From positions 1 through 14,016 of the forward strand of contig PEVN01000166.1 of assembly GCA_002779825.1 (NCBI GenBank): DNA of 14,016 nucleotides, written 5' to 3'. The notes beneath the pieces were generated by a model that did not search any database, was not told the origin of the DNA, and worked only from the letters and a program-made list of their open reading frames with translations. The position numbers and the translations under genes were made by a program. This document shows, piece after piece, positions 1 through 14,016 of this stretch; position 1 is the stretch's first letter, and each line of letters starts with the position of its first letter. Source of the stretch: Armatimonadetes bacterium CG06_land_8_20_14_3_00_66_21. GTDB lineage: Bacteria > Armatimonadota > Abditibacteriia > CG2-30-66-41.

Positions 1-214
1 GCACGTGGTCGGTCCCCACCGCGAGATGGGCGAGTCACACGTGTTCGAGGACATCATGCAGCTTGTCGACTGGGCGCGCGAAGGGAAGCCCAGCCTCGCC
101 ACAGCCGAGCACGCCCGCCACGTCATTGAGATCTTCGAGGCCGGCTACCGCGCGGCGGAGACCGGCGAGACCCAAACGCTCACGACAACATTCGCGCCGC
201 CCGAGGGCGCCTGA
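1..214 (+). CDS. Gfo/Idh/MocA-family oxidoreductase, C-terminal fragment (5' end lies outside the window; reading frame runs from position 2, stop TGA 212-214)
   Basis: Translation ...HVFEDIMQLVDWAREGKPSLATAEHARHVIEIFEAGYRAAETGETQTL matches the C-terminal alpha/beta domain pattern of Gfo/Idh/MocA oxidoreductases (h-v-ie-i-eA-y-Sa-tG-kt-v-L). The frame is open back to position 2, so the real start is upstream of the window. Confidence 0.55.
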   Translation, partial: HVVGPHREMGESHVFEDIMQLVDWAREGKPSLATAEHARHVIEIFEAGYRAAETGETQTLTTTFAPPEGA

Positions 215-300
215 GGACCCGCGCCCTTACACGACCCGCTACCGGCAGACCAAGTGCGCGGGCGGCAGGAGAGCTGGGCCCGCTGCGGAGGGGCGGCCGG

Positions 301-1155
301 TCACCCCTTCATCCCCGTAACGGCAATCCCCTGGATGAACGTCCGTTGGGTGAAGAAGAACAGGATGATCACCGGGAGCACGATGATGGTGCAGGCGGCC
401 ATGAGCATGTTCCACTCGGTGCCGCCGTGCTGGCTCTGGTAGAACTGGAGACCGAGGGCGAGGGTGAAGTGCTTCTGGTCGGTCAGGTAGATGAGCGGCC
501 CCAGGAAGTCGTTCCAGGCGTAGAGGAAGTGGAACAGGGCGACGACGGCCAGGGCGGGCTTGGCCAACGGCAGGATAATCCGCCAGAAGATACCGAACTC
601 GGAGCAACCGTCGACTCGGGCGGCGTCGGATAGCTCTTCGGGAATGGTGCGGAAAAACTGCCGGAGCAGGAAGATGTTGAAGGCGCTGCCGAAGAACGCG
701 GGCACCCACAGCGGCTTGAACGAGCCGATCCAGCCGAGGTGCTTGAACAGCGCGAATACGGCGACCATGGTCACTGGGAACGGCACCATCATCGTCGCCA
801 GCGTGACTGCGAACAGCAGGTCGCGGCCCTTCCACTTCAAGCGGGCGAAGCCGTACGCGACGAGTGCGTTGGACAGCACCGTGCCCGCCACGCCGAGTAC
901 TGCCAGGTACAGCGTGTTCAGCGTGTACCGCAGGAAGGGAATGTAGCCGACCTGATCGCTCTGGTAGGTGATGGCCTTCCAGTAGTTGCTCAACTGAAAG
1001 GTGGACGGGATCCACTGCGGCGGGACCTTCATCGTCTCCTCGATGGGCTTCAGCGAAGTGGAGACCATCCAGAACAGCGGGAACAGGAACACGATCGACA
1101 AGCCGATCAGGATCGCGTGGATGAGGAACTTGGCCTGGGGGGATTTGGCTTCCAT
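301..1155 (-). CDS. carbohydrate ABC transporter permease, MalG/UgpE-like (CUT1 family)
   Basis: 284-aa polytopic membrane protein with an EAA loop motif (EELSDAARVDGCSEFGIFWRIILPLAKPAL). It is the last gene of the SBP-permease-permease operon. ATG start at 1153-1155. Confidence 0.9.
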   Translation of the reverse strand: MEAKSPQAKFLIHAILIGLSIVFLFPLFWMVSTSLKPIEETMKVPPQWIPSTFQLSNYWKAITYQSDQVGYIPFLRYTLNTLYLAVLGVAGTVLSNALVAYGFARLKWKGRDLLFAVTLATMMVPFPVTMVAVFALFKHLGWIGSFKPLWVPAFFGSAFNIFLLRQFFRTIPEELSDAARVDGCSEFGIFWRIILPLAKPALAVVALFHFLYAWNDFLGPLIYLTDQKHFTLALGLQFYQSQHGGTEWNMLMAACTIIVLPVIILFFFTQRTFIQGIAVTGMKG

Positions 1156-1215
1156 GGGGGCAGGGCAATAGGTCGTATGAGTCCTATGGGTCCTTATGAA
1201 GGGCGCGGTGCCCGC

Positions 1216-2100
1216 TCACCCTCCTTCGTAGTACACCAACCGCTCCGAAAACTTCAGCGCCAGCAGCGTCAGCACCAGGATGATCAGGAACATGATCCAC
1301 GCCATGGCGCTGGCGTAGCCCATGCGCAGGTACGAGAACGCGTTGTCGTACAGGTACATGGCGAAGAAGTAGGTCGAGCGCGCCGGCTGGCCGCGCGGCG
1401 ACATGACATAGGGCACGGCGAAGAACTGAAACACGCCGATCAACCCCATGATGGTGTTGAACAGAATCACCGGCGAGACCATGGGGAGGGTAACGTGACG
1501 AACCTTCTGCCCCCAGTTGGCACCATCCAACTCGGCGGCTTCGTAGAGCTGCTGCGGGGCGCTTTGCAGACCGGCAAGGTAGATGACCACGGCGTGACCG
1601 ACGCCCCAGAGCGTGAGGAGAACCAGCGCCGGCTTCGCCCAGAACGGATCGCTCAGCCAGCCAGGTCCCTTGATCCCGATCAGGCCGAGAACGTGGTTGA
1701 GCACTCCGTGCTCGCCGTTGAAGATCCACAACCACAGGATCGCCAACGCCACCATCGGCACCAGCGAGGGGACGAAGAAGATGGTCCGGTAGACGGTCAT
1801 CCCGCGCACGCCCGTATTGAGCAAGATCGCCAATCCGAGCGACACCACCACGCCCAACGGGAGAGCAAACGCGGCGTAGCCGAGCGTGTTCCCAAGCGCC
1901 TTCCAGAACACTTCATCAGTGAACAGGTCGGCGTAGTTGCCCAGCCCGATGAACTGCGGCTTCATCAGGACCGAATACTCGCACAGGCTGAAGTAGAACG
2001 AGGCGATGATGGGGTAGAGCAGGAACACGCTCAGCCCGACGAACCAGGGGGAGACGAAGCCGAGACCGTTGCGGAGGGTGCGTTTCTCTTGCCTAGTCAT
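1216..2100 (-). CDS. carbohydrate ABC transporter permease, MalF/UgpA-like (CUT1 family)
   Basis: 294-aa membrane protein with an EAA motif (QLYEAAELDGANWGQKVRHVTLPMVSPVI). Its ATG at 2098-2100 lies 3 nt from the SBP stop codon (2104-2106), so the two are tightly coupled. Confidence 0.9.
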   Translation of the reverse strand: MTRQEKRTLRNGLGFVSPWFVGLSVFLLYPIIASFYFSLCEYSVLMKPQFIGLGNYADLFTDEVFWKALGNTLGYAAFALPLGVVVSLGLAILLNTGVRGMTVYRTIFFVPSLVPMVALAILWLWIFNGEHGVLNHVLGLIGIKGPGWLSDPFWAKPALVLLTLWGVGHAVVIYLAGLQSAPQQLYEAAELDGANWGQKVRHVTLPMVSPVILFNTIMGLIGVFQFFAVPYVMSPRGQPARSTYFFAMYLYDNAFSYLRMGYASAMAWIMFLIILVLTLLALKFSERLVYYEGG

Positions 2101-2103
2101 GGC

Positions 2104-3435
2104 TCAGTGCTCCAGCCGCGCTTCGCGGCGGAGACCGCGGTCGAGCTTCTTCTGCATCCGCTGTTGGACGATGTCCAGGGCTTCCTTGGGCGCCCTCTTC
2201 TGCAGCCAGAGGTGATCGAACGCGTTGTTCATCTCGTCGGCGTATTCGTTCCACATGCCGAGCTTGGGGGTGCTGAAGGCGTTCTTGCTCTTCGCCAGGT
2301 CGATGAAGACCTCGATGTATGGGTTTGGGTGCTTTCTCAGAAACTCCGCGCTTACCTTCCGGAGCGGCGTGAACTTGCGCTGCCCCATGTTGAGCAGCTC
2401 GCTCCCGCCCTGGGAGTTCACAAACCGAATGAACTCGAACGCTTCGTCGGGATGCTTGGCACCCGTCGGGATGACCAGCACATCGGCTTCGGCGTCGGTC
2501 ACGTTGGCCAGGTCGGGCCGACCGGCTGGGTGCGGGAAGGGCGCGGCGCCCCACTCGAGCTTAGGCGCGTACTTGCTGATGAAGTTGTGCATCCAGACGC
2601 CCTGAATCTCCATCGCGACTGTTTCGGACAGGAACGCGTTCTGCGGCGAGGAGAAGTTGCCGAAGCCGCTCTGGAATGTCTGCAGCGCCGTGGCTCCGTA
2701 CTTCTTGGAGTAGGACTGCACCCACTCGAATGCCCGGATATTCTCCGGGGAGTTGGCTGTGATCTTCGACTTGCCGTCCCACATACGGCCGCCAAAGAAG
2801 TACCCCCACGCCCAGTTCCACCAGCCAGGCTCGGAGGGCATGAAGCCCATCCGGACGATTTTGCCGTCCTTGTCCCGCGTGGTCAGCTTCTCGGCGAAGG
2901 CATCCAGTTCCTCGATGGTCCGGGGCGGGCGGTTTGGGTCCAGACCGGCTTCGCGGAACAGGCGCTTGTTCCAGTGCAGGGCGATGGTCGCCGGAGTCGT
3001 GAGCAGTGCCCACGTTTTCCCGCGGTGCCTGCACAGATCCCAGAACACCGGTAGGAAGTCCTGCTCACCGATTCCTTCTCGCTTCAGGTAGGGGTCGAGG
3101 CAGAGCACTGCGTTCTTGTCCGCGTAGACGTTGACGTTGGAGGACCACAGCCCTGCCACGTCGGGCGGGATCCCACCCGCGGTCGCCATCAGCATCTTCC
3201 GGTCGACCTGGCTAACAGTGAGCAGGTTTACGTGAATGCGGCTCTGCGACTCGTTGAAGGCATTCACAGTCGCCCGCATCGCGTCGCCCTCGAAGCCGGT
3301 CCACTTCTCCCAGTAGTCGATGGTAATCGGGCCGCCGGAGCGGCCGTCGTGGCGGCAGCCGGTAGTGGTGGCGACTACAAGGATTGCAGCGATCATCAAC
3401 GACGGGAGTGCAGTTGCGCGAGAGGGCTTCAGCAT
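2104..3435 (-). CDS. ABC transporter substrate-binding lipoprotein (extracellular solute-binding protein family 1, sugar/oligosaccharide type)
   Basis: 443 aa. N-terminal signal peptide followed by a Cys (…AILVVATTTGCRHDG), consistent with a lipobox. Size and Trp/Tyr/Asn-rich composition are typical of CUT1 solute-binding proteins. It sits directly upstream of the two permeases. Confidence 0.88.
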   Translation of the reverse strand: MLKPSRATALPSLMIAAILVVATTTGCRHDGRSGGPITIDYWEKWTGFEGDAMRATVNAFNESQSRIHVNLLTVSQVDRKMLMATAGGIPPDVAGLWSSNVNVYADKNAVLCLDPYLKREGIGEQDFLPVFWDLCRHRGKTWALLTTPATIALHWNKRLFREAGLDPNRPPRTIEELDAFAEKLTTRDKDGKIVRMGFMPSEPGWWNWAWGYFFGGRMWDGKSKITANSPENIRAFEWVQSYSKKYGATALQTFQSGFGNFSSPQNAFLSETVAMEIQGVWMHNFISKYAPKLEWGAAPFPHPAGRPDLANVTDAEADVLVIPTGAKHPDEAFEFIRFVNSQGGSELLNMGQRKFTPLRKVSAEFLRKHPNPYIEVFIDLAKSKNAFSTPKLGMWNEYADEMNNAFDHLWLQKRAPKEALDIVQQRMQKKLDRGLRREARLEH

Positions 3436-3476
3436 GGTGGAGCAGCAATGGAGGAGTTGCCGGAGGAGTACGCGGT

Positions 3477-4937
3477 TCAGGGGCTGCCATCCTTCTGTGG
3501 GTCTGAATCAGCCGTGTTCGGCCCTCTACTCGCGTCGAGCGCTTCGACCAACCCACGCGCTTTGTCCAGCGTCTCCTGGTACTCCGCTTCAGGGACTGAG
3601 TCGGCCACGATGCCTCCCCCGGCGTGGAAGTAGGCAACGCCGTCCTTCACAACCATGGTCCGGATGACGATGTTCAGGTCCAGGCTGCCGTCGAAGCCCA
3701 GGTAGCCGAGGGCGCCGGTGTAGACACCGCGTTTCGTCGGCTCCAGTTCGTCGATGATCTCCATCGCGCGGATCTTGGGCGCGCCGGTGATGGAGCCACC
3801 GGGAAATGTAGCCCGGAGCAGATCGACCTGGTCGCAGTCTTCGCGAAGCGTTGCCTCGATGGTGGACGTTAGATGATGCACGGTGGGGAATGTCTCCAGG
3901 GCCGCGTGCTCCGTGACGGCTACAGAGCCGGTCTCGGCCACGCGCCCCAAGTCGTTGCGCTCCAAGTCCACGATCATGAGGTGCTCGGCATGGTCCTTCT
4001 CACTGGCGAGGAGTTCCTGAGCGTTCCGCCTGTCTGAGTCGGCGTCGGCGCCCCGCGGGCGAGTACCCTTGATGGGGCGCGTGTGCATTCGGCGGGAGTT
4101 CGGGTCGAGCCACAGGAAGCGTTCCGGCGAGGCGCTGAGGAGCTGGAACGGTCCGTAGTCGAGGTAGGCAGCGAACGGGGCCGGGTTGCCGGATCGCAGT
4201 CGTCGGTACAGGTCCCACGAAGGCACCGGCATCGCCGCGGCAAACCGCTGCGACAGGTTCACCTGGTAGATATCCCCGGCGAGGATGTAGTCCTGTGCGC
4301 GCCGGACGGCGTCGACATACGCCTGGTGGGTGAAGTTGCTGGTGAGGGGAGGAGCGTGGTGGGCGTCGCGCGAGGCGAGGGGCGGGACGGGGGGCAGCGG
4401 GCTGGGGGGGGGGTCGGTCAAGAGGCGCGTGGCGAGTTCCTCCGCGAGGCGGGCTTCGACTCCCTGGCCGGTGTCCGTCCAACCGACCCAACTCCGGCCC
4501 GACTCGTGGTCGAACGTCACGACCACCGGGCAGAAGTGGACGAACATGTCGGGTAGCCCCAGGTCGTCCACAACCGTCCGGGGCAGCTCCTCGACGAAGT
4601 GGCAGAGATCGTACCCGAGATAACCGACGGCGGCCCCGCACAGCGGCGCACCAGGGCCCGGCGCCGGCGTGCTGAACTCACCCAGCAAGTCTCGCAGAAC
4701 CGAGAAGGGGTCACCGACGAACTGCTGCCGCAGGCCGCCGCGTGAGACGGTCACTTGCCGGCCGTGGCACCGGACCGAGGTGCCCGAAGAGAAGAGCAGG
4801 AGGGAGCGCTCTGCGTGCCGGCCCAACCGCATGCCGCTGTCGAGAAAGGCGTCTCCCGGTCCTCGCCTGAGAAGGTCAAAGGCCGCATGCGCAGCAATCG
4901 GGGTGGAAAGTTCGGTGAGCTGGGTGGACCAAGCTGC
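3477..4937 (-). CDS. pabB: aminodeoxychorismate synthase component I (PabB-type chorismate-binding enzyme). The 5' boundary is uncertain: probably the TTG at 4935-4937 or the ATG ~105 nt further in. The tracked ORF reaching 5351 is over-extended.
   Basis: The C-terminal 300 aa align closely with E. coli PabB as I remember it: SPERF, TRPIKGTRPRG, DRRNAQELLASEKDHAEHLMIVDLERNDLGRV, FPGGSITGAPKIRAMEIIDELEP, GGGIVADSVPEAEYQET. The Lys in PIKGT is typical of ADC synthase, where TrpE has PIAGT. The first ~138 codons of the tracked ORF are R/P/S-rich, overlap the upstream gene by 350 nt in another frame, and have no homology. The homologous N-terminus begins near …LAAWSTQLTELSTPIAAHAAFDLLRRGPGDAFLDSG, which parallels E. 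coli MKTLSPAV…AMLLHSG. Confidence 0.75.
   Translation of the reverse strand, partial: AAWSTQLTELSTPIAAHAAFDLLRRGPGDAFLDSGMRLGRHAERSLLLFSSGTSVRCHGRQVTVSRGGLRQQFVGDPFSVLRDLLGEFSTPAPGPGAPLCGAAVGYLGYDLCHFVEELPRTVVDDLGLPDMFVHFCPVVVTFDHESGRSWVGWTDTGQGVEARLAEELATRLLTDPPPSPLPPVPPLASRDAHHAPPLTSNFTHQAYVDAVRRAQDYILAGDIYQVNLSQRFAAAMPVPSWDLYRRLRSGNPAPFAAYLDYGPFQLLSASPERFLWLDPNSRRMHTRPIKGTRPRGADADSDRRNAQELLASEKDHAEHLMIVDLERNDLGRVAETGSVAVTEHAALETFPTVHHLTSTIEATLREDCDQVDLLRATFPGGSITGAPKIRAMEIIDELEPTKRGVYTGALGYLGFDGSLDLNIVIRTMVVKDGVAYFHAGGGIVADSVPEAEYQETLDKARGLVEALDASRGPNTADSDPQKDGSP
4404..4413. repeat. G10 homopolymer run inside the pabB coding sequence (C10 on the coding strand, encoding DPPPS)
   Basis: Read directly from the sequence: gctgggggggggg tcgg. 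It lies within a Pro-rich linker insertion (TDPPPSPLPPVPPLASRD). Confidence 0.9.
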
Positions 4938-5001
4938 CAAGGTGTTCGCCGTTGACCAATCGCTGCCGGGCGACGACTGTCGTCCCCGCGCCCGTTGCGG
5001 G

Positions 5002-6813
5002 CTACTTGCAGATTCGCTCCATCTCTCGGTAGGCGCCTCGCTCTGCGCGGACGACCTCCTCCAGGGCGCTTGCGGAGGCGTCGCACTCCTGCTTGAATGC
5101 CTCGCCCGAGGAACTCTCCGCGCGGGCCGAGACCGACGTGGCTCGAGGCGCGCCGAGGGACACCAAGCGAAGCTTCTCGACGGCTTGGTCGAAGTTGGCG
5201 GCTGCCGCCAACGCTGGACCGCGCTCCTGATTGGGGAGTTCGCTGCCCGCGGTGCGCAGGAACGCGGCGGCCGCCTTTCGAGCCGCAATGAGGCGAGGCA
5301 GGGCGGAAACGGCCCAGCGGACCAATTGGTCGCGGTCGCCCTTGTCGACACCCGAGTAGTCCCGCGGTGTGCGGAGATCGTCCGTCAACTCTCCGTAGGC
5401 GCGGAACCCGGCCGCAAAGGAACCGGACCGCGTGTCTTGCATGATCCGCGTGCCGGCGAGGATCGCGCGTTCGGCCGTCTGCGCCGGACTCTGAGGGGTG
5501 CCGCTCTTTCGGAACGCGTACCAGGAGTAGCGAGCGCCACGACCGCTCATGGGGTCAAGGGAAGGGCAGGACGCGGTCGACCAGCTCTTCGCGAGTTGCT
5601 CCCAGGAGATGGAGCGGGTGACGCCTTGGGCGTCAACCAGAGCCACCGTCTTCGCCGCCTCGTCGTAGCCGGCAACTGTAACCCAACTGGGTGGCGGGAG
5701 CACCAGTGGCACAAAGGTGGGTTGCTTCTCCTCCAGGGCTTTGCGCAGAGACTCGAAACCCTCCTGGAAGTTCGTGGCTTGCTGCTGCGTAGCCTTGAGT
5801 CCAAGCGCGCGGCAGATGGCCTCGAGGGGGTTCTGCGGCAGATAGTCGGCGCCGCCCAGGCGGTCATTCCTGTCGTAGTAGAACTGAAAGGCCAGCCCGG
5901 AGATGCCCATCAGATGGCTGGCCGAAGCCTGCACACCAAGCGACCGGAGGCAGTCTTCGACGCTCCGAACGAACGGAGGAGGCGTGAAGTGCTCCCGGGC
6001 TCCTCCCGGCGCGCGCCGGATGTCGACGAGAACCTGGCGGGGTTCGGCCTTCTCCTCAGCCGCCTTCGTTCGGTCAGTGTAGTAGTAGATCCACCCGACG
6101 GCCTTCTTCGCTTCCTCAGCCCATTTGGTGTTGGGGTACTTGTCGATGACCTTCTGGTATTCCTCGATTGCCCGGGAGGCGTCGCGCCGAACATTCTCCT
6201 GAGCCCGAGCGAGGTAGAACTGAGCTTCGGCACAGTGCGGCAGGTCCGCAGCGTAGTCCCGAAGGACCGCGGTGAAATGCTCGGCACCCTCCCACTTGCC
6301 CTCCTCGTAGTCGATCTTCCCCAGTGCCAGCCGCACTTCGGCCGATAGTGCCGGATCTCCGCCGTAGTCCGCCAGGGCCCGGTTGTACGCGGCCACTGCT
6401 TCCTCGTAGCGGTGCAGTTTCCGGTAGGACAGCTCGCCGATGCGCAACTGCGCCGCCGGGGCGAGTTTGCTGTTGGGGAACTGGGAGACGAGGCGCTGGT
6501 AGGCGCGCACTCCCTCGGCGGGTTTGTCGAGGTGATTGGCGAGGACCTCCGCCTGTCGCTCGAGGGCGCGGTCTGCCCATTCACTGTCGGGATGGTCGTC
6601 ACTCAGCAGCCGGTAATAGCGGAGCGCCTCCTGGTATTGCTTGCGGGCGTAGTGCTGTTCCGCCTTCTCAAAGATGTCCTTGTCCGACGCGCCGCAGCCG
6701 ACCAGTGCCACCACTGCCAGGAGCGCAAGGGCAGTACGCGCGGCTCGAGGAAAGGGACGCCTCCAGCGGGATGCCGTCGATGAGTTGGGTGGGTGGCTTG
6801 ACATCTGAAACAC
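5002..6813 (-). CDS. outer-membrane-type lipoprotein: N-terminal TPR repeats (BamD/YbgF-like) fused to a C-terminal ~330-aa domain resembling BtrH_N/DUF4872 (papain-like fold). The tracked start is GTG at 6811-6813; an in-frame ATG lies at 6802-6804.
   Basis: Signal peptide with lipobox (…ALLAVVALVGCGASDKD). After it come several TPR-like helices (YARKQYQEALRYYRLL…, YRKLHRYEEAVAAYNRAL…, AEAQFYLARAQ…, EEYQKVIDKYPNTKWAEEAK). The C-terminal half carries DCLRSLGVQASASHLMGISGLAFQFYYD and later SWVTVAGYDEAAKTVALVDAQG. These resemble the BtrH_N consensus (C..aL…G…sE…GLgsGLgFfY … HavvvvGYDe) as recalled from memory. Confidence 0.7.
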   Translation of the reverse strand: MFQMSSHPPNSSTASRWRRPFPRAARTALALLAVVALVGCGASDKDIFEKAEQHYARKQYQEALRYYRLLSDDHPDSEWADRALERQAEVLANHLDKPAEGVRAYQRLVSQFPNSKLAPAAQLRIGELSYRKLHRYEEAVAAYNRALADYGGDPALSAEVRLALGKIDYEEGKWEGAEHFTAVLRDYAADLPHCAEAQFYLARAQENVRRDASRAIEEYQKVIDKYPNTKWAEEAKKAVGWIYYYTDRTKAAEEKAEPRQVLVDIRRAPGGAREHFTPPPFVRSVEDCLRSLGVQASASHLMGISGLAFQFYYDRNDRLGGADYLPQNPLEAICRALGLKATQQQATNFQEGFESLRKALEEKQPTFVPLVLPPPSWVTVAGYDEAAKTVALVDAQGVTRSISWEQLAKSWSTASCPSLDPMSGRGARYSWYAFRKSGTPQSPAQTAERAILAGTRIMQDTRSGSFAAGFRAYGELTDDLRTPRDYSGVDKGDRDQLVRWAVSALPRLIAARKAAAAFLRTAGSELPNQERGPALAAAANFDQAVEKLRLVSLGAPRATSVSARAESSSGEAFKQECDASASALEEVVRAERGAYREMERICK

Positions 6814-6884
6814 ACCAGCTTGCCCGGCCAGTCGCGATAGCCGACGAACAGCTCTCGCCGGACCCTCGCACGCCGTAACCTCCG

Positions 6885-6914
6885 AGTATAGCGCTCCCCT
6901 TCACAGGCTGTCAA
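6885..6914 (-). promoter_or_regulatory. sigma70-type promoter on the minus strand: TTGACA-N18-TATACT, driving the TPR-lipoprotein/pabB/ABC cluster
   Basis: The minus strand reads cgttcgTTGACAgcctgtgaaggggagcgcTATACTcgg. TTGACA is the reverse complement of 6909-6914 and TATACT of 6885-6890. The pair lies 65-75 nt upstream of the start at 6804/6813. Confidence 0.45.
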
Positions 6915-6968
6915 CGAACGCACCGGCGCTTTGCCGCGAGCCGGGCAGGGGAAGGGCCTGGTTGCCGA

Positions 6969-6997
6969 TTGACACCGAAACCTCTCGGCGTTAGAAT
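6969..6997 (+). promoter_or_regulatory. sigma70-type promoter on the plus strand: TTGACA-N17-TAGAAT, driving the NfeD-like/flotillin operon
   Basis: The plus strand reads gccgaTTGACAccgaaacctctcggcgtTAGAATcgttcc. TTGACA is at 6969-6974 and TAGAAT at 6992-6997, with the optimal 17-nt spacer. The predicted transcription start is near 7004, 48 nt upstream of the first candidate start codon at 7052. Confidence 0.5.
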
Positions 6998-7051
6998 CGT
7001 TCCTCACGTAGCTCGACGGCAAGAGGCAGTGCGCTTCGCAAGCTCCATCGG

Positions 7052-8134
7052 TTGACTCCGCAGCCGCGAGACCTTCCGAAACTCACAGCAGCAGGGCGCG
7101 ACGGCCTTCCCGGCCTCTTCGGTGCACAACAGGTGGTGTTCTCCGTGCAGGGACTCAAGACGCTGTTCGAGTGGTACAACCTGATCTACACGCTCCCGTT
7201 TGGGCTTTCGGTCCTCCTCATGATCGTCTCCGCCATGGGGCTGGGAGGGCACGACCACGACGTTTCCCCCGACGGCGGCCACGACCTCGACGCCGACCAC
7301 GATGTGGACGTAGATCATGACGTCGACGTAGATCACGACGTGGCCCTCGACCATGACCTCGACGTCGACCACGACCTGGCCGTGGACCACGACGTAGACG
7401 TGAACCACGACGTGGACATGGACCACGAAGTGGATCTGGACCATGACGCCGATCTGGACCACGACCTGGATCATGAGGTCGACTACGACTTGGCCGCCGA
7501 CCACGACGCTGACGCGGACGCGGACCACGGCGCAGACCACGAGGTCCATGCCTCCTCGAATGGAACGCACCACGGCGCGGATCATGGGGAAGGCATCTTC
7601 AAGGCACTCCTTTCACTGCTGGGTGTCGGCAAGGTACCGATCACCGTGCTTGTTCAGTCCTTCATGATCGCGTGGGCGATCATCGGGTGGAATGCGAACA
7701 TCTGGCTCGCCAAGGCCATGCGCGTGCCGGAGGTGTACATCCTCCCCTCCATGGCGGTCTCGTTCTTCGGCGCGCTCGCGGTGACGCGGCTCATGGCGAC
7801 GTGTCTGCACAAGCTCATGCCCAGTTCCGAGACCTACGCAAGGAGCCCGCTGGAGCTGCTCAGTGCTTCGGGCACCGCCCTCTTCAGGATTGACGGAAGC
7901 GGGGGGTACGCCGATGTCTACGATGAACAAGGAACGCTCCACCGGGTCCGCTGCCGTAGCCGTTACGGCGAGGTGCCGAAGGGCGCCAAGGTGACGCTGG
8001 TGGACTACCATGGCGACGGCCTCTACGAAGTAGCCGCCCCTACCCACAACGGTAGTAACGGCAACGGAGAAGCCAAAACGGGACCCGAGCCGCGGACGCG
8101 CTCCGTGGAAGTGCAAGCCGAGACGAGAAACTGA
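7052..8134 (+). CDS. NfeD-like (YuaF-type) membrane protein carrying an inserted His/Asp-rich hexapeptide repeat module. TTG start at 7052; GTG 7133/7136 is an alternative.
   Basis: Topology: TM1 (LIYTLPFGLSVLLMIVSAMGLGG), then a ~112-aa H/D-rich low-complexity region, then TM2/TM3 (VPITVLVQSFMIAWAIIGW…, VYILPSMAVSFFGALAVTRLMATCL). The C-terminus (GTALFRIDGSGGYADVYDEQGTLHRVRCRSRYGEVPKGAKVTLVDYHGDGLYEVAAP) has the pattern of the NfeD OB-fold beta-barrel. It sits immediately upstream of a flotillin gene, the canonical NfeD-SPFH pairing seen in B. subtilis yuaF-floT. Confidence 0.7.
   Translation: MTPQPRDLPKLTAAGRDGLPGLFGAQQVVFSVQGLKTLFEWYNLIYTLPFGLSVLLMIVSAMGLGGHDHDVSPDGGHDLDADHDVDVDHDVDVDHDVALDHDLDVDHDLAVDHDVDVNHDVDMDHEVDLDHDADLDHDLDHEVDYDLAADHDADADADHGADHEVHASSNGTHHGADHGEGIFKALLSLLGVGKVPITVLVQSFMIAWAIIGWNANIWLAKAMRVPEVYILPSMAVSFFGALAVTRLMATCLHKLMPSSETYARSPLELLSASGTALFRIDGSGGYADVYDEQGTLHRVRCRSRYGEVPKGAKVTLVDYHGDGLYEVAAPTHNGSNGNGEAKTGPEPRTRSVEVQAETRN
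7280..7525 (+). repeat. In-frame degenerate 18-nt tandem repeat, about 10 full units plus 3 partial, encoding (H-D-x-D-x-D)n. The whole H/D-rich region spans 7250-7585.
   Basis: Units read from the sequence: cacgacctcgacgccgac / cacgatgtggacgtagat / catgacgtcgacgtagat / cacgacgtggccctcgac / catgacctcgacgtcgac / cacgacctggccgtggac / cacgacgtagacgtgaac / cacgacgtggacatggac / cacgaagtggatctggac / catgacgccgatctggac, and so on. Units differ mainly at synonymous third positions (cac/cat, gac/gat, gtg/gta/gtc). Confidence 0.9.
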
Positions 8135-8172
8135 CCGCAACGAGATCGGCGCGGCACACCCGCGCACAACAA

Positions 8173-8179
8173 AAGGAGG
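8173..8179 (+). promoter_or_regulatory. Shine-Dalgarno site AAGGAGG, 8 nt upstream of the flotillin ATG
   Basis: The sequence is aaAAGGAGGagtcgcagATG. This is the canonical core with ideal spacing. Confidence 0.8.
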
Positions 8180-8187
8180 AGTCGCAG

Positions 8188-10098
8188 ATGAGTTGGGGGA
8201 TTCTGTTAGGCATGTTGGGCGTGGCGCTGATGATCACGCCATTCGTGAAGGGGAGCGTCGGCTCGCTGGGAGGCCTTATCCTCATGGGGTTCGGCGGGCT
8301 GCTCTTCGTGATCGACGTGCTGGTAATGGTCATCACGAAGCTGTATGTCAAGACCAGCGCCAATCAGGCATTCGTGCGCACGGGCAGCGGCGGGTCCAAG
8401 GTCGTGCTGGACGGCGGGTGCTTGGTCGTGCCCATCATCCACCGGGTGGTCCCGGTCTCGCTGGAAACCATGAAGCTCGATGTCGACCGGCGTGACCAGG
8501 AAGCGTTGATCACCAAGGACAACCTGCGCGTCGACGTGACCGGAGAGTTCTACATCAAGGTGGAGCCTGCCCGAGACGACATTCTCGCCGCCGCCCGCTC
8601 GTTGGGTGAGAAGTCGATCAACCCGGCGAATGTCTCGCAACTGGTCTTTGAGAAGCTGGTATCCGCGATTCGAAGCGTGGCTGCCACCATGGACTTGGTC
8701 GACCTGCACATGCGCCGAGACGACTTCGCGACCGCTGTCTTCGACAGCGTCCAGAACGAGCTGAAACCCAATGGTCTCACGCTGGAGACGGTCACCATCT
8801 CCCAGTTGGACCAGACCGACCCCAGCATGCTGAGCGATGAGAACATCTTCGATGCGCAAGGCAAGAAGAAGATCACCGAGATCACGGCTGCGGCCAAAGT
8901 CGAGCGGAACCGTTTGGAGCGCATGGCGGAGCAGGAGACAACGAAGCAGGACGTCGAGACGCGACAGCGCGTGCTGGACCTGGAGAAGGCCCAGAAGGAG
9001 GCCGAAGCGACCCAAGCCGCCGAGGTTGCCAACATCCAGGCTGGCAAGCAGCGCGAGAAGCAGGCGTACCAGATCGAGCAGGACCGGGCCGTGCTGGAAG
9101 CGGAGATCGCCAAGGACCAGCAAGTGAAGGAGCGGCAGATCGCCCAGGAGCAGTCGGTGGAGGTCGCTTCCATCCAGCGCGACAAGGCGTTGATCCTGCA
9201 ACGCCAGGAAAAGGAACAGACCGACATTGCTCGCGAGCAGGCGGTCCAGTCGTCGGAGATCGCCAAGGCGCAGGCCGTCGAGGTCGCCGAGCGGCAGAAG
9301 CAGATCGCCGTTGCCGAGCGGGATGCAGAACGCGCTCGCGCCGAGGAAGAAGCCCTGAAAGCTCAGGCTGCTCGGGAGTCCGCCAACCAGCAGGTCATCA
9401 CTGTTACCGCCGTCGCCGAAGCCGACCGCCATGCTCAGACCAAGCTGATCGAAGCCAAACAGGTGATCGAGCAGCAGAAGATCAAGGACCAGACGGAAGC
9501 CGACGTGCTGGCCTACACCGCCGTCAAAGAAGCTGAAGGCGACCAGGAAGCCGCCCAGCGAAAGGCAGACGCCCAACTCACCCTCGCCCAAGCCGCCGCC
9601 GAATCGAAGAAGCGCGAATCCGAAGGCGACAAGGCCATCAAGATGGTGGACGTCGAAGTCGAGCGCGAGCGGGTCAACGTCGAGCAGGCTCGGGTTGAGG
9701 TCGAGCGGCAGTCGCTGGAGAACACGCAGACCTTCGATAGGGCGGGCATTGAGCTGCAGAAGATCAAGCTCACCATCGAGGCCCAAAAGGAAGTGCAGAT
9801 CGCGCTGGCCAACAACATTGGTCAGTTCATGAGCCGCGGGCAATACACCGTGTACGGCGACCCCGACACGATGGCCAGCATGATGGAGCGGTTCATGAAA
9901 GGGCTGTCAATCGGGACGTTCGCCGACGGTCTGATAGCGGGCGCCTCGGAGGACGCCAAAGACGCCGTCCGCGGCCTCGCGCAGACCCTTGGCGGCCCAG
10001 TGGGCGCAGCCGTGGAGAAGCTCGTTGGCTCGGACACACCCGACGAGCCGGCACCCTCCGCGCCGGCCGATGCCGAGCCCGCCACCGCGGAGGCATAG
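8188..10098 (+). CDS. floT: flotillin-like protein, FloT/YuaG family: N-terminal membrane hairpin, SPFH/band-7 domain, long coiled coil
   Basis: 636 aa. Hydrophobic N-terminus. The SPFH region (FVRTGSGGSKVVLDGGCLVVPIIHRVVPVSLETMKLDV…ALITKDNLRVDVTGEFYIKV) aligns with B. subtilis FloT (VRGGGTFVLPVFQQAEPLSLLSSKLDV…) as recalled. After it comes ~350 aa of E/A/Q/K-rich heptad-like sequence (EAEATQAAEVANIQAG…ERQKQIAVAERDAERARAEEEALKAQAA…) and an acidic Pro/Ala tail. A strong RBS precedes it and the NfeD-like gene sits just upstream. Confidence 0.88.
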   Translation: MSWGILLGMLGVALMITPFVKGSVGSLGGLILMGFGGLLFVIDVLVMVITKLYVKTSANQAFVRTGSGGSKVVLDGGCLVVPIIHRVVPVSLETMKLDVDRRDQEALITKDNLRVDVTGEFYIKVEPARDDILAAARSLGEKSINPANVSQLVFEKLVSAIRSVAATMDLVDLHMRRDDFATAVFDSVQNELKPNGLTLETVTISQLDQTDPSMLSDENIFDAQGKKKITEITAAAKVERNRLERMAEQETTKQDVETRQRVLDLEKAQKEAEATQAAEVANIQAGKQREKQAYQIEQDRAVLEAEIAKDQQVKERQIAQEQSVEVASIQRDKALILQRQEKEQTDIAREQAVQSSEIAKAQAVEVAERQKQIAVAERDAERARAEEEALKAQAARESANQQVITVTAVAEADRHAQTKLIEAKQVIEQQKIKDQTEADVLAYTAVKEAEGDQEAAQRKADAQLTLAQAAAESKKRESEGDKAIKMVDVEVERERVNVEQARVEVERQSLENTQTFDRAGIELQKIKLTIEAQKEVQIALANNIGQFMSRGQYTVYGDPDTMASMMERFMKGLSIGTFADGLIAGASEDAKDAVRGLAQTLGGPVGAAVEKLVGSDTPDEPAPSAPADAEPATAEA

Positions 10099-10182
10099 CG
10101 CAAGCCGCAACAGACTCGACCAGGGAGCCGGCAGAGGGCTGGCTGGCTGCGCGCTTCGCGACTCCGGCCAGTCCCGCACCCC

Positions 10183-10189
10183 AAGGAGG
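10183..10189 (+). promoter_or_regulatory. Shine-Dalgarno site AAGGAGG, 8 nt upstream of the GTG start at 10198
   Basis: The sequence is ccAAGGAGGgacccgtcGTG. The core and spacing are identical to the flotillin RBS. Confidence 0.7.
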
Positions 10190-10197
10190 GACCCGTC

Positions 10198-10683
10198 GTG
10201 TCAACCGGACCACACGCCGTGCCAAGCCAGGAAGCCCTCACCGATCCGGTGGCCCAGTGGACGGGCCCGGCCGTGGACACCTTGGCCGTCTTCTGCAGCG
10301 ATGGGCGCTTCAAGCAGATGGTCGACCAGTTCCTCCGCGACGGGCTGAAGATTCCCAACTGCGATGTCTTCGCCGTGCCGGGCGGAGCAGGCTGGCTTAC
10401 CGTCGGGATGTTCAATCACAAGGAATGCGATGTCGCCAACCGCTGGCTCGACGCGCTGATCCAGAAACACAACCTGAAACGGGCCGTGCTGCTCGCCCAC
10501 GAAGATTGCGCCTTCTACAAGGAGAAATGCAAGGGTTCCAGCCCCCTGGAGATCCAGAAGCAGCAACTCACCGAGCTGCACGAGGCGGGCGACCGTCTGC
10601 AACGCATGGCCGGCAGTGTTCAGGTGGAGCTGTACTATGCGGACATCGTTGACGATCACGTGACGTTCAAACGGGTGAAGTAG
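10198..10683 (+). CDS. small (161 aa) protein with beta-carbonic-anhydrase-like zinc-ligand motifs (CxDxR … HxxC); a divergent or truncated beta-CA-fold protein
   Basis: FCSDGRF (C33, D35, R37), then CDVFAVPGGAG, then AVLLAHEDCAFY (H101, C104). Order and spacing mirror the beta-CA signatures C[SA]DSR … VxRNAGN … hhhhGHxxCG (compare E. coli CynT ISCSDSRL…VIRNAGN…IVICGHSNCGA, recalled). Third codon positions are GC-rich on the + frame, and an RBS precedes the GTG. The length-matched antisense ORF 10201-10686 is rejected. Confidence 0.45.
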   Translation: MSTGPHAVPSQEALTDPVAQWTGPAVDTLAVFCSDGRFKQMVDQFLRDGLKIPNCDVFAVPGGAGWLTVGMFNHKECDVANRWLDALIQKHNLKRAVLLAHEDCAFYKEKCKGSSPLEIQKQQLTELHEAGDRLQRMAGSVQVELYYADIVDDHVTFKRVK

Positions 10684-10727
10684 CACGGGACCGCCTCAAC
10701 CGTCCTCAACTGCCGCGGCGCGACCTC

Positions 10728-11699
10728 GTGTGGTTTGGGCTGTTTGCATTTGTCTACGTCCCTTTGTGCGTGACCCTCGAGGCCTCGGTGCCCTGCCGAG
10801 GCGGCCCCGACGAAGGGGACCACTACCTCTACATCCGCGCCCTGGGCGACACCTGCCGCCTCCCTATCCGGGCTCCGGTGTATGCGGGCCGCCTGGGAGG
10901 CGGTGACCGCGTCAGTCGCCAGATTCAGCATCCGCCCCTCTACTACCTGGTCGGAGCGGTGGTCTATCGGCTGGCAAAGCCTTGGGGACCGGCCGCGACA
11001 TGGAAGGCAGTGCGCGGCCTGAACATTGCTCTGGGTGTCGCAGCGCTGTACTTGTTGCTTCTCACCGCGCGCTTGGTCCTTTCCCGTCGTCGCGACCTCT
11101 CCTTCGCCCCGGTTGTGCTGTGTGCCTTGGTGCCCGCCTCCGCCTACTTGTCGTGTGTGGTCACCAATGAGACGGGGGCTGCGCCGTGCACCAGCGCAGT
11201 TCAGTATGCTTTGGCGCGCGTGATCTGGCTGGGACCGTCTCGACGCCGACTCGCGGCCTTGGCGCTGCTCCTCGGCTTGGGGGGGCTGACCAAGTACACG
11301 GTGCTGGTGTGGCTCCCTGCCTGCTTGTGCGTGGTGCCAGTGGTCGTGTGGCGTGCCCGGCGCAGTTGGCGCTTGGTGGCGGAGGGCGTAACGACCATCC
11401 TCACCGTCCCCTTGGCTGTGTGTGGGGGATGGTTCGTCCGGAACTACCTTCTCTACGGAGTCCCGGTGTTTCGCAACGTGATCAGCCCGCCCCTGTTCCC
11501 CGGCGGCTTGCCGCAGATCGCGGCTCTCCCTGACGAGCTGCTCCTGTCCTGCTGCCACTTGATCTACCGCTCGATCCCGATGGCGTGGACCCCCTATTGG
11601 CTGATCGCGCAAACCCCGGGCTGGACACGACTGCTCTGCAGAGGATCGTTCGTGATCACCGCGCCTATTGCGCTCGGCGCGGTTTTCAGGGCGGTTTAG
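10728..11699 (+). CDS. GT-C-fold glycosyltransferase, ArnT/PMT-like (GT83/GT39 type). This is the N-terminal 323 codons and it ends at an in-frame TAG (11697-11699).
   Basis: The first-loop motif PDEGDHYLYIRALGDT…KPWGP parallels E. coli ArnT [20 protein letters not shown]…KPIAGYW (recalled). A LLLGLGGLTKYTVLVWLPA segment parallels the ArnT GMGVMTKGFLALAVP motif. About 9-10 TM helices. GTG start. Confidence 0.7.
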   Translation: MWFGLFAFVYVPLCVTLEASVPCRGGPDEGDHYLYIRALGDTCRLPIRAPVYAGRLGGGDRVSRQIQHPPLYYLVGAVVYRLAKPWGPAATWKAVRGLNIALGVAALYLLLLTARLVLSRRRDLSFAPVVLCALVPASAYLSCVVTNETGAAPCTSAVQYALARVIWLGPSRRRLAALALLLGLGGLTKYTVLVWLPACLCVVPVVVWRARRSWRLVAEGVTTILTVPLAVCGGWFVRNYLLYGVPVFRNVISPPLFPGGLPQIAALPDELLLSCCHLIYRSIPMAWTPYWLIAQTPGWTRLLCRGSFVITAPIALGAVFRAV

Positions 11700-11717
11700 G
11701 TTCGGCGGCGGTGGGCC

Positions 11718-12041
11718 GTGCGCCGGCTCCGCCGCCGTGAGCTGTTCTTCCTGACCTCCACGCTGGCACTCCTCCTGCTCATTCTGGGGGGCTTCCGAGA
11801 GGCGTGTCTCGTGGATATGGGGGTGATGGTCTTCGTGGGACGCTACTACGTCGCCCTCTTCCCTGCCACGGCCCTATTGGCGGTGTGGTGGCTTCTCTCG
11901 CTGGGTAGGGCTTGGCGTCGTGCACCGCGGGCCGCCGCGTGTCTCGGCGTCTGCCTCCTTCTGGCCGTCTGGGCGGCCGCTTACCTGGGGGTCTCTCGGT
12001 TCTACAACCTCTACGGAGTCGGGGCGCCGCCGGAGTTGTAG
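11718..12041 (+). CDS. C-terminal three-TM segment, most likely the continuation of the GT-C glycosyltransferase. It is in the same frame as 10728-11699, separated only by the TAG and six sense codons.
   Basis: 11718 and 10728 are both multiples of 3. Reading through TAG gives …FRAV*VRRRWAVRRLRRRELFFLTSTLALLLLILGG… with 3 further TM helices. The combined length of ~438 codons and ~12-13 TM helices matches full-length GT-C enzymes. Confidence 0.5.
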   Translation: MRRLRRRELFFLTSTLALLLLILGGFREACLVDMGVMVFVGRYYVALFPATALLAVWWLLSLGRAWRRAPRAAACLGVCLLLAVWAAAYLGVSRFYNLYGVGAPPEL

Positions 12042-12085
12042 TCCGCCGCCGTCTGGCTCCCGCCCCGAAGGCCACAGGGCAAACG

Positions 12086-14011
12086 TCAGAACGAGAAGAT
12101 CTCGTGCCCCCGCACACCGACTGCGAAGTCGATGAGCACCCACAGCCCAGCGCTGACGAACTCCCCGAGGATCAGTCCGAAGGCGCCGGGCAGCACTTGG
12201 CGGTAGACGGCGCTCCCGCCGTACTTCATTACAGCGCTCTTCGCAGTCCACCCCAGCAGGATGGCGAACCAGAAGTTGACCATCGGCCACGTGGCGCCCA
12301 TGAGGTAGCCGATGGGATGGAACGGCCACCACAAGAACGTCCGGTGCAGGACCTGGATGAAGACCATGCTGCCCGCACCCGCCAGCATCGTCCAGACCGA
12401 CGGGAGCGACCGCGGCTCGCCGTTGACCAGCAGGTTCGCCGTCCACGAGCAGTACAGGTTCTTCGTGTAGTAGGTGGTGAACCACGTGTTGAGAGTCAAC
12501 CCGCCGTTGGCGTACACGAGGCGCATGTACGACCAGTACGACACCGCCGCCGCCACCACCACGCTCGCCGCCATCGCGCCGAGCAGCCTGCGTCGCTGGA
12601 TGCCGGCCATGTCGCCGATCTTCAGCCCCTGCACCAGGCAGGGCATGAGCGGGCTGCGGTTGTCCAGCATGAGCAGGTGGTCGAAGAACACCAGCATGGT
12701 CACGCGGGCCGGCCCGAACGCTTTGCTGCCGACGGCCGCGAAGAGCATGTTGATCGGCCGGAACGGGTGCTGTACATACAGCATCCCGCCTTCGCACACC
12801 AGCCGAACCGCGACCGTATGCACCAGGAAGAACAGCACGAACAACACGGTCGTGCTCCCCGCGCCCGCGCCGGCTGCGCCACCCCAGGCGATGATCGTCG
12901 CCATTCCCGCAACCAGGCAGAGCAGCGTGCCGCGCGCTGAGAGCGCTTCCTTCGCGGTGTAGTCGCGCTGCCGCCCCAGCACGCACTCCCACCACTGGCG
13001 CAGGTGCGGCCGCATCCCCCAGAACCCATACAGCCCGGCGACGACGATGCCGCCGATCATCTGGTGGGCGACGAACGCCTTCACCGGAAAGGCCTGCACG
13101 TTGGGCATCGGGAACCCCGCCATTGCCCCGAGGAGCTGCTGCACCAGGAAGAAGAAGTAGAAGAACCACAAGCTGAACGACAGGTTCGTCGGCAGCAGGA
13201 ACGTCAGCCCGATGATGCTGAACAGCACGCGGAGGCGCAGCAGTTGAAGGGTGTCCCACGGCTTCCCCGTGAAGTACTGGCCCAGCGGGATGAGGTGCAC
13301 GTTGATCGCCGGCACAAAGGGGAAATGGAAGTGCAGCCCGTTGAGGGTGTGGAGGCAGAACGGCAACAGGAAGCACCACCACATGAGCTTGTTGCGCACC
13401 AGCGTTGGCAGCGCCCACCGGTGCCCCGCCTCGACCTCCGCAAACTGAACGGGCAACTGCACCAGCGGGAACACCAGCTTCTCGTTCTCCACCCACTGCC
13501 GCCGCAGCAACGCCGACAGCCCGAAGAGCACCAAGTACACACCCGCAATCAGGATGCCCCACCCCAACACCGGACTCCACCAGGCACTCCACGGAATCGG
13601 CGACGAGGGCGCCCCTTCGTACAGCCCGATCACCGCCTGTTCGGAGCCGGGATGTAGCCACTTCGGGAGGTTGGGGAGGATCAGCTCATCCCACCGGTTC
13701 TCCGGTCCGGCGAAGTAGAAGGGCCCGGCGATGTACGGGATCAGCAGCCCGACCAGCCCGAACGACGGGATCCCCGCCGCGACCAGCAGCATCACGAACA
13801 CAGTCAGCAACTCAGCCCGCGTCAACTGCTTGCCGAGGCGCGCCAGCAGCGGGTTGACGCCGACGGACAGCACGAGAAACAGGAAGAAGCTGGCAACGGG
13901 GAACGCCGTCAGACCCACCCATGTGCCCTTCATCACCAGGTCGCTGTAGGGGATGGCGAGGGCGAGGGCGGCTGAGAGGAGGAGACCGAGGAGGAAGGAG
14001 CGGAGGGTCAT
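12086..14011 (-). CDS. large polytopic integral membrane protein of unknown function (641 aa, at least 14 predicted TM helices, Trp/Phe-rich)
   Basis: ATG at 14009-14011. Strongly hydrophobic segments run along the whole length (LLGLLLSAALALAI, LTAFPVASFFLFLVLSV, LLTVFVMLLVAAGIPSFGLVGLLIPYIAG, WGILIAGVYLVLFGL, and others). The overlapping same-strand ORF 11874-13661 is R/G/A-rich junk. I recognise no family confidently. Confidence 0.75.
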   Translation of the reverse strand: MTLRSFLLGLLLSAALALAIPYSDLVMKGTWVGLTAFPVASFFLFLVLSVGVNPLLARLGKQLTRAELLTVFVMLLVAAGIPSFGLVGLLIPYIAGPFYFAGPENRWDELILPNLPKWLHPGSEQAVIGLYEGAPSSPIPWSAWWSPVLGWGILIAGVYLVLFGLSALLRRQWVENEKLVFPLVQLPVQFAEVEAGHRWALPTLVRNKLMWWCFLLPFCLHTLNGLHFHFPFVPAINVHLIPLGQYFTGKPWDTLQLLRLRVLFSIIGLTFLLPTNLSFSLWFFYFFFLVQQLLGAMAGFPMPNVQAFPVKAFVAHQMIGGIVVAGLYGFWGMRPHLRQWWECVLGRQRDYTAKEALSARGTLLCLVAGMATIIAWGGAAGAGAGSTTVLFVLFFLVHTVAVRLVCEGGMLYVQHPFRPINMLFAAVGSKAFGPARVTMLVFFDHLLMLDNRSPLMPCLVQGLKIGDMAGIQRRRLLGAMAASVVVAAAVSYWSYMRLVYANGGLTLNTWFTTYYTKNLYCSWTANLLVNGEPRSLPSVWTMLAGAGSMVFIQVLHRTFLWWPFHPIGYLMGATWPMVNFWFAILLGWTAKSAVMKYGGSAVYRQVLPGAFGLILGEFVSAGLWVLIDFAVGVRGHEIFSF

Positions 14012-14016
14012 GGAGT

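Follow-up and report, generated by a model that had tools for sequence, protein, structure and literature searches.

A PF20393 protein with a predicted beta-carbonic-anhydrase fold, encoded next to flotillin and NfeD-like genes in Armatimonadota and other bacterial phyla

The roles of bacterial flotillins, and the proteins that they organize, are a largely open question in the field, and in the literature on flotillin operons (PMC2636767, PMC11237479) the only companions described are an NfeD protein and a few third genes restricted to particular lineages. A 14,016-nucleotide (nt) stretch of the genome of Armatimonadetes bacterium CG06_land_8_20_14_3_00_66_21 (contig PEVN01000166.1, positions 1 to 14,016 of the forward strand; hereafter the window) raises this question in a specific form. 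Directly downstream of its flotillin gene lies a gene for a 161-residue protein (10198..10683, plus strand), which an earlier reading of the sequence alone (the original prediction) took for a minimal beta-carbonic-anhydrase-like protein in an unusual genomic position. We asked what this protein is and whether its place beside flotillin has a meaning. We conclude that it belongs to PF20393 (Pro_CA_2), a distant sister family of the beta-class carbonic anhydrases (CAs), and we lean toward the view that it is an active CO2/bicarbonate enzyme that is functionally coupled to flotillin.

Translation of 10198-10683 (+) returned the predicted open reading frame (ORF) together with both of the motifs on which the original prediction was built. 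The gene begins with GTG, 8 nt downstream of a ribosome-binding site (AAGGAGG, 10183-10189), and an alternative in-frame GTG at 10219 yields the 154-residue form that appears in some database entries. The first motif, C33-S-D35-G-R37 (10294..10308, +), contains the first putative Zn ligand and an Asp/Arg dyad, and the second, H101-E-D-C104 (10498..10509, +), contains the second and third putative Zn ligands. The distances that had been estimated as ~68 residues between Cys and His and ~57 residues between the HxxC motif and the C-terminus were counted as 68 and, from C104, 57; the ~56-residue Cys-His spacing that had been cited for CynT holds for E. coli Can (C42 to H98, 56 residues). The protein is soluble and cytoplasmic, with neither a signal peptide nor a transmembrane (TM) segment, and it carries the label 'hypothetical protein' in the source Armatimonadota metagenome-assembled genome. 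For an ORF of the same length on the opposite strand (10201..10686), no homology support was found.

A Pfam scan placed the 161-residue protein in PF20393 ('Putative carbonic anhydrase') with 40.8 bits (E=3e-10; profile positions 7-116 of 125; gathering cut-off, 30 bits). The same scan gave no match to PF00484 (Pro_CA) at E<=1, and NCBIfam and PADLOC scans returned nothing for this protein. A word-indexed protein search recovered only six proteins, all metagenomic, at 61-100% identity and with the query's own cluster counted. With a profile built from these close homologues, an exhaustive HMMER search matched 816 cluster representatives (clustering at 50% identity) at E<=1e-3, of which 305 reached E<=1e-10; most are 145-170 residues long.

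Residue conservation was counted over the best 155 of these representatives. The putative ligands are nearly or fully invariant (C33 in 151, H101 in 155 and C104 in 155 of 155), as are both members of the dyad (D35 in 149, R37 in 146), and the last Cys is followed by Gly or Ala. Other near-invariant positions are S34 (143), D56 (149), P61 (148), G62 (155), G63 (149), L87 (149), H91 (153), Y107 (153) and Q123 (145). CxDxR and HxxC are recognized active-site motifs of beta-CAs (PMC3907363), and because their five key residues are conserved across the 155 representatives, the sequences indicate that the two motifs form the conserved center of a large family rather than a coincidental match. The 161-residue protein carries every one of these near-invariant residues and has a length typical of the family (about 150-160 residues); it differs in having Glu at position 126, where 142 of the 155 representatives have Asp, and Ala at position 86, where most members have Phe. 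The original prediction presented three features as belonging to this protein: no RNAGN block, a wider Cys-His spacing and an early C-terminus. All are real, but they are traits of a catalogued family rather than peculiarities of one member. Searches of the PDB and the literature found neither a solved structure nor a characterized member of PF20393.

How close is this family to the beta-CAs? With the single sequence, a search of PDB sequences gave one match only (E=5.5, to an iota-CA repeat), which we consider spurious. In contrast to this single-sequence result, the family profile matched the yeast beta-CA Nce103 (3eyx) with E=1.3e-4, pairing CSDgR with CSDSR and HedCg with HTDCG, and two Candida beta-CAs followed as weaker matches. 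Against E. coli Can, hhalign gave a probability of 85.6% (E=5.6e-6) and paired C33 with C42, D35 with D44, R37 with R46, H101 with H98 and C104 with C101, with D56 opposite the Glu of the Can segment 'GELFV'. These profile matches, together with the PF20393 score, bear out the hidden Markov model (HMM) similarity to beta-CAs on which the original prediction depended. In the alignment with Can, the extra Cys-His spacing is accounted for by an insertion that follows R37 and another near residues 70-76. The proposed replacement of the RNAGN block by VPGGAG is confirmed, because the profile-profile alignment sets V60-P-G-G63 opposite H-R-N-V of Can; P61-G62-G63 (10378..10386, +), a family-invariant turn, thereby takes the place of R64-N65-V66, the canonical R-N-x.

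Identity between the 161-residue protein and canonical beta-CAs of PF00484 (E. coli Can, yeast Nce103 and M. thermoautotrophicum Cab) is 11-18%. Where those enzymes have RN(A/V)(A/G)N, PF20393 has PGG(P/A), and hhalign found no conserved Gln opposite the active-site Gln33 of Can. The canonical Cys and His are 12 residues closer to each other, and 119 residues follow HxxC in Can, compared with 57 here. Membership in canonical PF00484 was considered and rejected; since there was no match above threshold and the RN block and active-site Gln are absent, the protein lies outside that family. Two relatives, P0064 and P0151, scored 17.7 and 22 bits on PF00484, below its cut-off of 25.7. The carboxysomal CsoSCA and LCIB/theta-CA are further points of comparison: they are much larger than PF20393 proteins, with other motif spacing, and their partners are the carboxysome shell and the algal CO2-concentrating mechanism, whereas PF20393 combines minimal size with the classical CxDxR/HxxC motifs.

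The predicted structure gives the same answer as the profiles. An AlphaFold (AF2) model made from 96 diverse family members reached a pLDDT of 94.9 and a pTM of 0.86; an earlier model from six close homologues (pLDDT 64) was too weak and was set aside. In a Foldseek comparison with the PDB, all of the top 50 matches were beta-CAs (best E=5e-6), the outcome expected from the original prediction, and the alpha/beta fold of the model is superimposable on solved beta-CA structures. Fold-comparison figures were 10-12.2 for true beta-CAs, including archaeal Cab, 11.3 for carbonyl sulfide (COS) hydrolase (3vrk), 10.8 for carbon disulfide (CS2) hydrolase (3ten), 10.0 for CsoSCA (8thm) and 9.2 and 8.8 for LCIB (5k5w and 5b5y); the next match, to generic alpha/beta domains, stood at 7.5. 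On the strength of the model, we assign the protein a beta-CA fold, about as far from the canonical beta-CAs as other divergent lineages of the superfamily are. The Pfam label makes this assignment unsurprising. The description of the protein as divergent but beta-CA-like is upheld by HMM similarity, fold and motif conservation alike.

Is a protein with this fold likely to be an enzyme? The original prediction named a divergent CA, a CS2/COS-hydrolase-like enzyme and a Zn-binding regulatory domain as candidate identities. The sequences argue for catalysis in that the five beta-class residues are kept, Gly or Ala follows the last Cys, and the dyad is present in more than 90% of members; the conservation of the dyad favors catalysis because a purely structural Zn site would not need it. 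If the protein acts as beta-CAs do, one Zn(II) would be coordinated by C33, H101 and C104, and the D35-R37 dyad would position the Zn-bound water and activate it; attack of the Zn-hydroxide so formed on CO2 would then yield bicarbonate and a proton in a reversible reaction. By analogy with beta-CAs, a dimer is probably the acting form.

The same fold is shared by COS and CS2 hydrolases, and the substrate pocket of PF20393 proteins is unlike that of canonical CAs, as might be expected if it were a Zn-dependent hydrolase of some other small linear molecule and did not hydrate CO2. Characterized COS and CS2 hydrolases fall within canonical PF00484 and limit access to the active site by N- and C-terminal extensions and higher oligomers; the papers on 3vrk and 3ten reportedly describe extra terminal segments and oligomerization that leave only a narrow hydrophobic tunnel to the active site. 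The 161-residue protein, however, ends 57 residues past HxxC and so does not have the access-closing segments of those hydrolases. Moreover, no sulfur-metabolism genes lie nearby in the window, and the PF20393 family is widespread among soil and aquatic heterotrophs. We therefore regard hydrolysis of COS or CS2 as quite unlikely.

The second half of the question concerns the genes around the Pro_CA_2 gene. Its upstream neighbor encodes a flotillin of the SPFH2/FloT/YqiK type (8188..10098, +; 636 residues; Pfam Band_7, E=7.9e-22) with a hydrophobic N-terminal anchor, an SPFH domain and a long charged region rich in Glu, Ala and Gln that is typical of flotillin coiled coils; the NCBIfam FloT model matched it with E=4.6e-17, far below the equivalog cut-off. 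Upstream of flotillin lies a gene for a YqiJ/YuaF (NfeD2)-like membrane protein (7145..8134, +; 329 residues as called in public assemblies, with the longest ORF starting from 7052). Its three TM-like segments and C-terminal soluble domain fit the NfeD2 architecture, and its score on Pfam YqiJ_N was 21.7 bits, just short of the cut-off of 23; at another Armatimonadota locus (L027), the product of the gene that precedes flotillin, 29% identical to it by tblastn, scored 27 bits. Between flotillin and the Pro_CA_2 gene is a 99-nt intergenic spacer (10099..10197, +) that contains the ribosome-binding site, and no terminator-like site was found on the plus strand from 6700 to 12200, the spacer included. 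A sigma-70-like promoter candidate, TTGACA-17-TAGAAT (6969..6997, +), which agrees with the consensus at 11 of 12 positions and was identified by consensus match only, is a possible promoter of the operon. From this arrangement, the Pro_CA_2 gene would be co-transcribed as the third gene of an operon in the order nfeD2/yqiJ-like, flotillin, proCA2.

The original prediction called the position downstream of flotillin unusual, a description that the genome comparison contradicts. A scan of one genome per GTDB species, with a pattern from a 10-sequence alignment, yielded 80 loci. Neighbors were identified with an HMM made from five flotillins, which was used instead of tblastn with the window flotillin after the latter missed Band_7 neighbors (L007, L010), and with an HMM built from NfeD-like neighbors for the NfeD-like genes. 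A flotillin gene lies upstream on the same strand in 45 of the 80 species loci, or 45 of the 73 with enough upstream DNA, and the order recurs in several phyla. It is immediately adjacent in every linked locus but one (L014, where a 294-residue ORF intervenes). The flotillin stop and the first aligned CA residue are separated by a median of about 33 nt, and therefore many of these gene pairs must abut or overlap. When the window locus and three further metagenome loci are added to the 45 from the scan, 35 of the resulting 49 linked loci have an NfeD-like gene ahead of flotillin, and eight more are cut by a contig end.

Most linked loci belong to Acidobacteriota and the rest to Armatimonadota, Bipolaricaulota/Acetothermia and Binatia, with two from Planctomycetota. 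In a rough neighbor-joining tree, linkage appears in several deep branches, the Armatimonadota clade of the window among them. Similar results came from long metagenomic contigs that carry distant family members (24-37% identity): of the eight looked up, five (P0019, P0158, P0170, P0182 and P0064) lie directly downstream of flotillin on the same strand. Their upstream Band_7/Flot proteins have 501-534 residues and are preceded by an ORF of 180-197 residues. The three unlinked members are two Endomicrobia-type genes and one gene from the candidate phyla radiation (CPR), which follows folD and glyA. We conclude that flotillin adjacency is the rule for this clade.

Might the protein nevertheless be an ordinary housekeeping CA whose adjacency to flotillin has no functional meaning? 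Many family members (including most of those in Planctomycetota, Endomicrobia and CPR) are not beside flotillin, and a separate promoter could lie within the 99-nt spacer of the window. However, at protein identities of 24-40%, the arrangement is found again, with order and strand unchanged, in Armatimonadota, Acidobacteriota, Bipolaricaulota/Acetothermia and Binatia and also in a few Planctomycetota. Spacers of just a few nt are common, and the NfeD-like gene is retained too, whereas the genes 3′ of the CA-like gene are not conserved across loci. An adjacency without meaning is already disfavored by this conservation of linkage, and we give it a low probability.

Several observations nonetheless weigh against an active enzyme coupled to flotillin. 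The linked fraction in the species scan is biased upward, because the scan patterns were drawn from the flotillin-linked subset of the family, and Planctomycetota members are mostly unlinked and have heterogeneous neighbors; among the unlinked Planctomycetota and Acidobacteriota loci, no conserved neighbor was found. Around the active site, the Gln33 and Arg64-Asn65-Val66 of Can are without counterpart or replaced by Pro-Gly-Gly, as described above, and the position of Tyr83 of Can is occupied by Phe in most family members but by Ala in the 161-residue protein. Four flotillin-linked members have lost the Asp and/or the Arg of the dyad (motif variants CSSNA, CSSSR and CSGYD) while keeping Cys, His and Cys: L010 (5001-5486), L082 and L091 (both about 6001-6495) and L084 (about 1959-2336), which come from Bipolaricaulota/Acetothermia, one Acidobacteriota genome and one metagenome contig (L010). 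Such losses are compatible with a function for which catalysis is not required in every case. N-terminal extensions in other members (P0098, P0044, P0057, P0041, P0064 and P0151), which are GYF_2, ACP-like (acyl carrier protein) or coiled-coil modules, point to roles in protein-protein interaction and advise caution on catalysis, and a literature search found no report of an assayed PF20393 member.

Two of these objections can be qualified. Despite the biased fraction, the recurrence of the linkage across phyla is a robust result. Likewise, loss of the Gln and RN residues is by itself no argument against activity, because to our knowledge the only universally conserved residues of the beta class are the three Zn ligands and the Asp/Arg pair, and Cab-type enzymes are also without the plant-type pocket residues.

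The remaining objections raise the possibility that the protein is a non-catalytic or regulatory Zn subunit of a flotillin/NfeD complex, in which the Cys-His-Cys(-Asp) site is either structural or senses bicarbonate/CO2, thiol redox state or Zn and so modulates scaffold assembly. A linkage that is tight and phylogenetically broad would suit such a subunit, as would the absence of the canonical pocket residues (Gln, RN and Val), the retention of all three Zn ligands in the four members without Asp and/or Arg, and the interaction modules at the N-termini of other members; the His/Asp-rich loop of the NfeD-like partner (see below) could also bind metal. On the other hand, a strict motif tabulation found the Asp-Arg dyad in 43 of 47 linked members, it is nearly invariant in the 155 representatives (149 for Asp, 146 for Arg), and structural Zn needs no Arg. 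The Gly or Ala that follows the last Cys resembles the HxxCG of active enzymes, and members away from flotillin occur among phosphoenolpyruvate carboxykinase (PEPCK) and PurE-family genes. We thus consider a non-catalytic or regulatory subunit unlikely, though the most probable of the alternatives to the catalytic reading that we prefer.

The PEPCK and PurE-family setting was seen at two Endomicrobia-type loci (L011, 3988-5857; L012, 2901-4747), where the PF20393 gene overlaps a HAD-family gene and the cluster encodes GTP-PEPCK, DUF2784, an aminotransferase and SAICAR synthase, along with PurE (AIRC) in one or two copies. PEPCK is a CO2-using enzyme, as are PurE enzymes of class II, to which the PurE proteins encoded here may belong; the setting is therefore unlike that beside flotillin and supports CA chemistry elsewhere in the family.

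How does the arrangement compare with flotillin operons already known? Operons of the SPFH2/flotillin-NfeD2 type (YuaF-YuaG, YqiJ-YqiK) have been described, and their third gene is known to vary, being the GNAT gene yuaI in B. subtilis and a gene for an AAA+ ATPase or a PLD hydrolase elsewhere (PMC2636767, PMC11237479). As in yuaF-floT(yuaG)-yuaI of B. subtilis and yqiJ-yqiK of E. coli, the nfeD2-like gene in the window precedes flotillin, and the flotillin has the N-terminal anchor, SPFH domain and coiled coil of those in known operons. In contrast, the third gene in the window is beta-CA-like and is conserved across several phyla, and the NfeD-like protein is distinguished by an unusually long (DHDVDV)n loop. 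No CA-like partner is mentioned in PMC2636767 or PMC11237479, full-text literature searches found nothing relevant that joins flotillin/SPFH-NfeD operons with carbonic anhydrase, and literature searches found nothing on PF20393, nor under new CA classes. The conserved nfeD2-flotillin-proCA2 cassette appears undescribed and therefore counts as a variant of the known flotillin operon.

If the protein is an active enzyme coupled to flotillin, as we favor, it would operate at, or serve, the flotillin/NfeD assembly on the cytoplasmic side of the membrane, where a local supply or removal of bicarbonate, CO2 or protons could follow. A more general proposal, which we put forward only tentatively, is that PF20393 proteins are dedicated clients or effectors of flotillin-NfeD2 scaffolds, which either set up a local CO2, bicarbonate or proton microdomain or act as sensors of CO2, bicarbonate, Zn or redox state that control scaffold assembly. 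The idea of a eukaryotic metabolon of stomatin, anion exchanger and carbonic anhydrase is a possible parallel. Should the proposal be true, flotillins would gain a defined biochemical partner kept in Acidobacteriota, Armatimonadota, Bipolaricaulota and Binatia, and a small, soluble, enzyme-like partner beside flotillin across phyla offers an easy experimental handle. The consequences for annotation differ with activity. If active, PF20393, with its 816 cluster representatives, would be a distinct minimal subclass of beta-CAs, found in abundant soil and aquatic phyla whose handling of carbon is deduced from CA inventories; if it is inactive, the label 'carbonic anhydrase' that automatic annotation assigns would be wrong for many proteins.

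Some further features of the cassette deserve description. The distinctive loop of the NfeD-like protein is specified within the gene by about 11 tandem copies of an 18-nt unit (7271..7470, +), which encode (DHDVDV)n. The resulting His/Asp-rich loop of roughly 100 residues lies between TM1 and TM2, and shorter His/Asp-rich loops occupy the same position in the upstream proteins of three other loci (L007, L008 and L009). The loop could be metal- or proton-binding, which is of note beside a gene for a protein resembling a Zn enzyme. At the Abditibacteriales locus with an intervening ORF (L014, 2-2757), the flotillin is 59% identical to that of the window, and the 294-residue ORF next to it has weak similarity to the flotillin HMM; it is either part of a split flotillin or an extra coiled-coil gene of the cassette.

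Among the N-terminal extensions of family members, the ACP-like one corresponds to a sub-threshold PP-binding match, in which, judged by eye, Tyr-Asp appears in place of the usual Asp-Ser. The coiled-coil extension is long and charged and resembles the stalks of ATP-synthase b and V-ATPase G, and a member that carries it, P0064, is also flotillin-linked (L095). Residues that might be specific to flotillin-linked members were sought as well, but the differences mostly track phylogeny and were not used.

Elsewhere in the window, two opposite-facing, near-consensus sigma-70-like promoters (6885-6997, each matching 11 of 12 positions) lie between the nfeD-like gene and a TPR/BamD-like gene on the minus strand (5002-6813). 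Downstream of the Pro_CA_2 gene are two plus-strand ORFs for polytopic membrane proteins, at 10728-11699 (323 residues) and 11718-12041 (107 residues), with spacers of 44 nt and 18 nt; Pfam and NCBIfam returned no family for either. They were considered as members of the cassette and rejected, their tblastn matches being in the same species only. PADLOC gave no support for a role in a defense system or phage, and Rfam gave no match in the window. A minus-strand gene for a 641-residue membrane protein (12086-14011; DUF6785, E=2e-142; DUF6784, E=7e-29) converges on the flotillin-side block. At the other side, a minus-strand gene (3477-5351) encodes a TrpE/PabB-type chorismate-binding enzyme that scores below every NCBIfam equivalog cut-off except that of pabB (TIGR00553). 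This gene is split or truncated in some assemblies of the same species (L002, 3287-4743; L003, 3279-4064), which suggests frameshifts or assembly differences.

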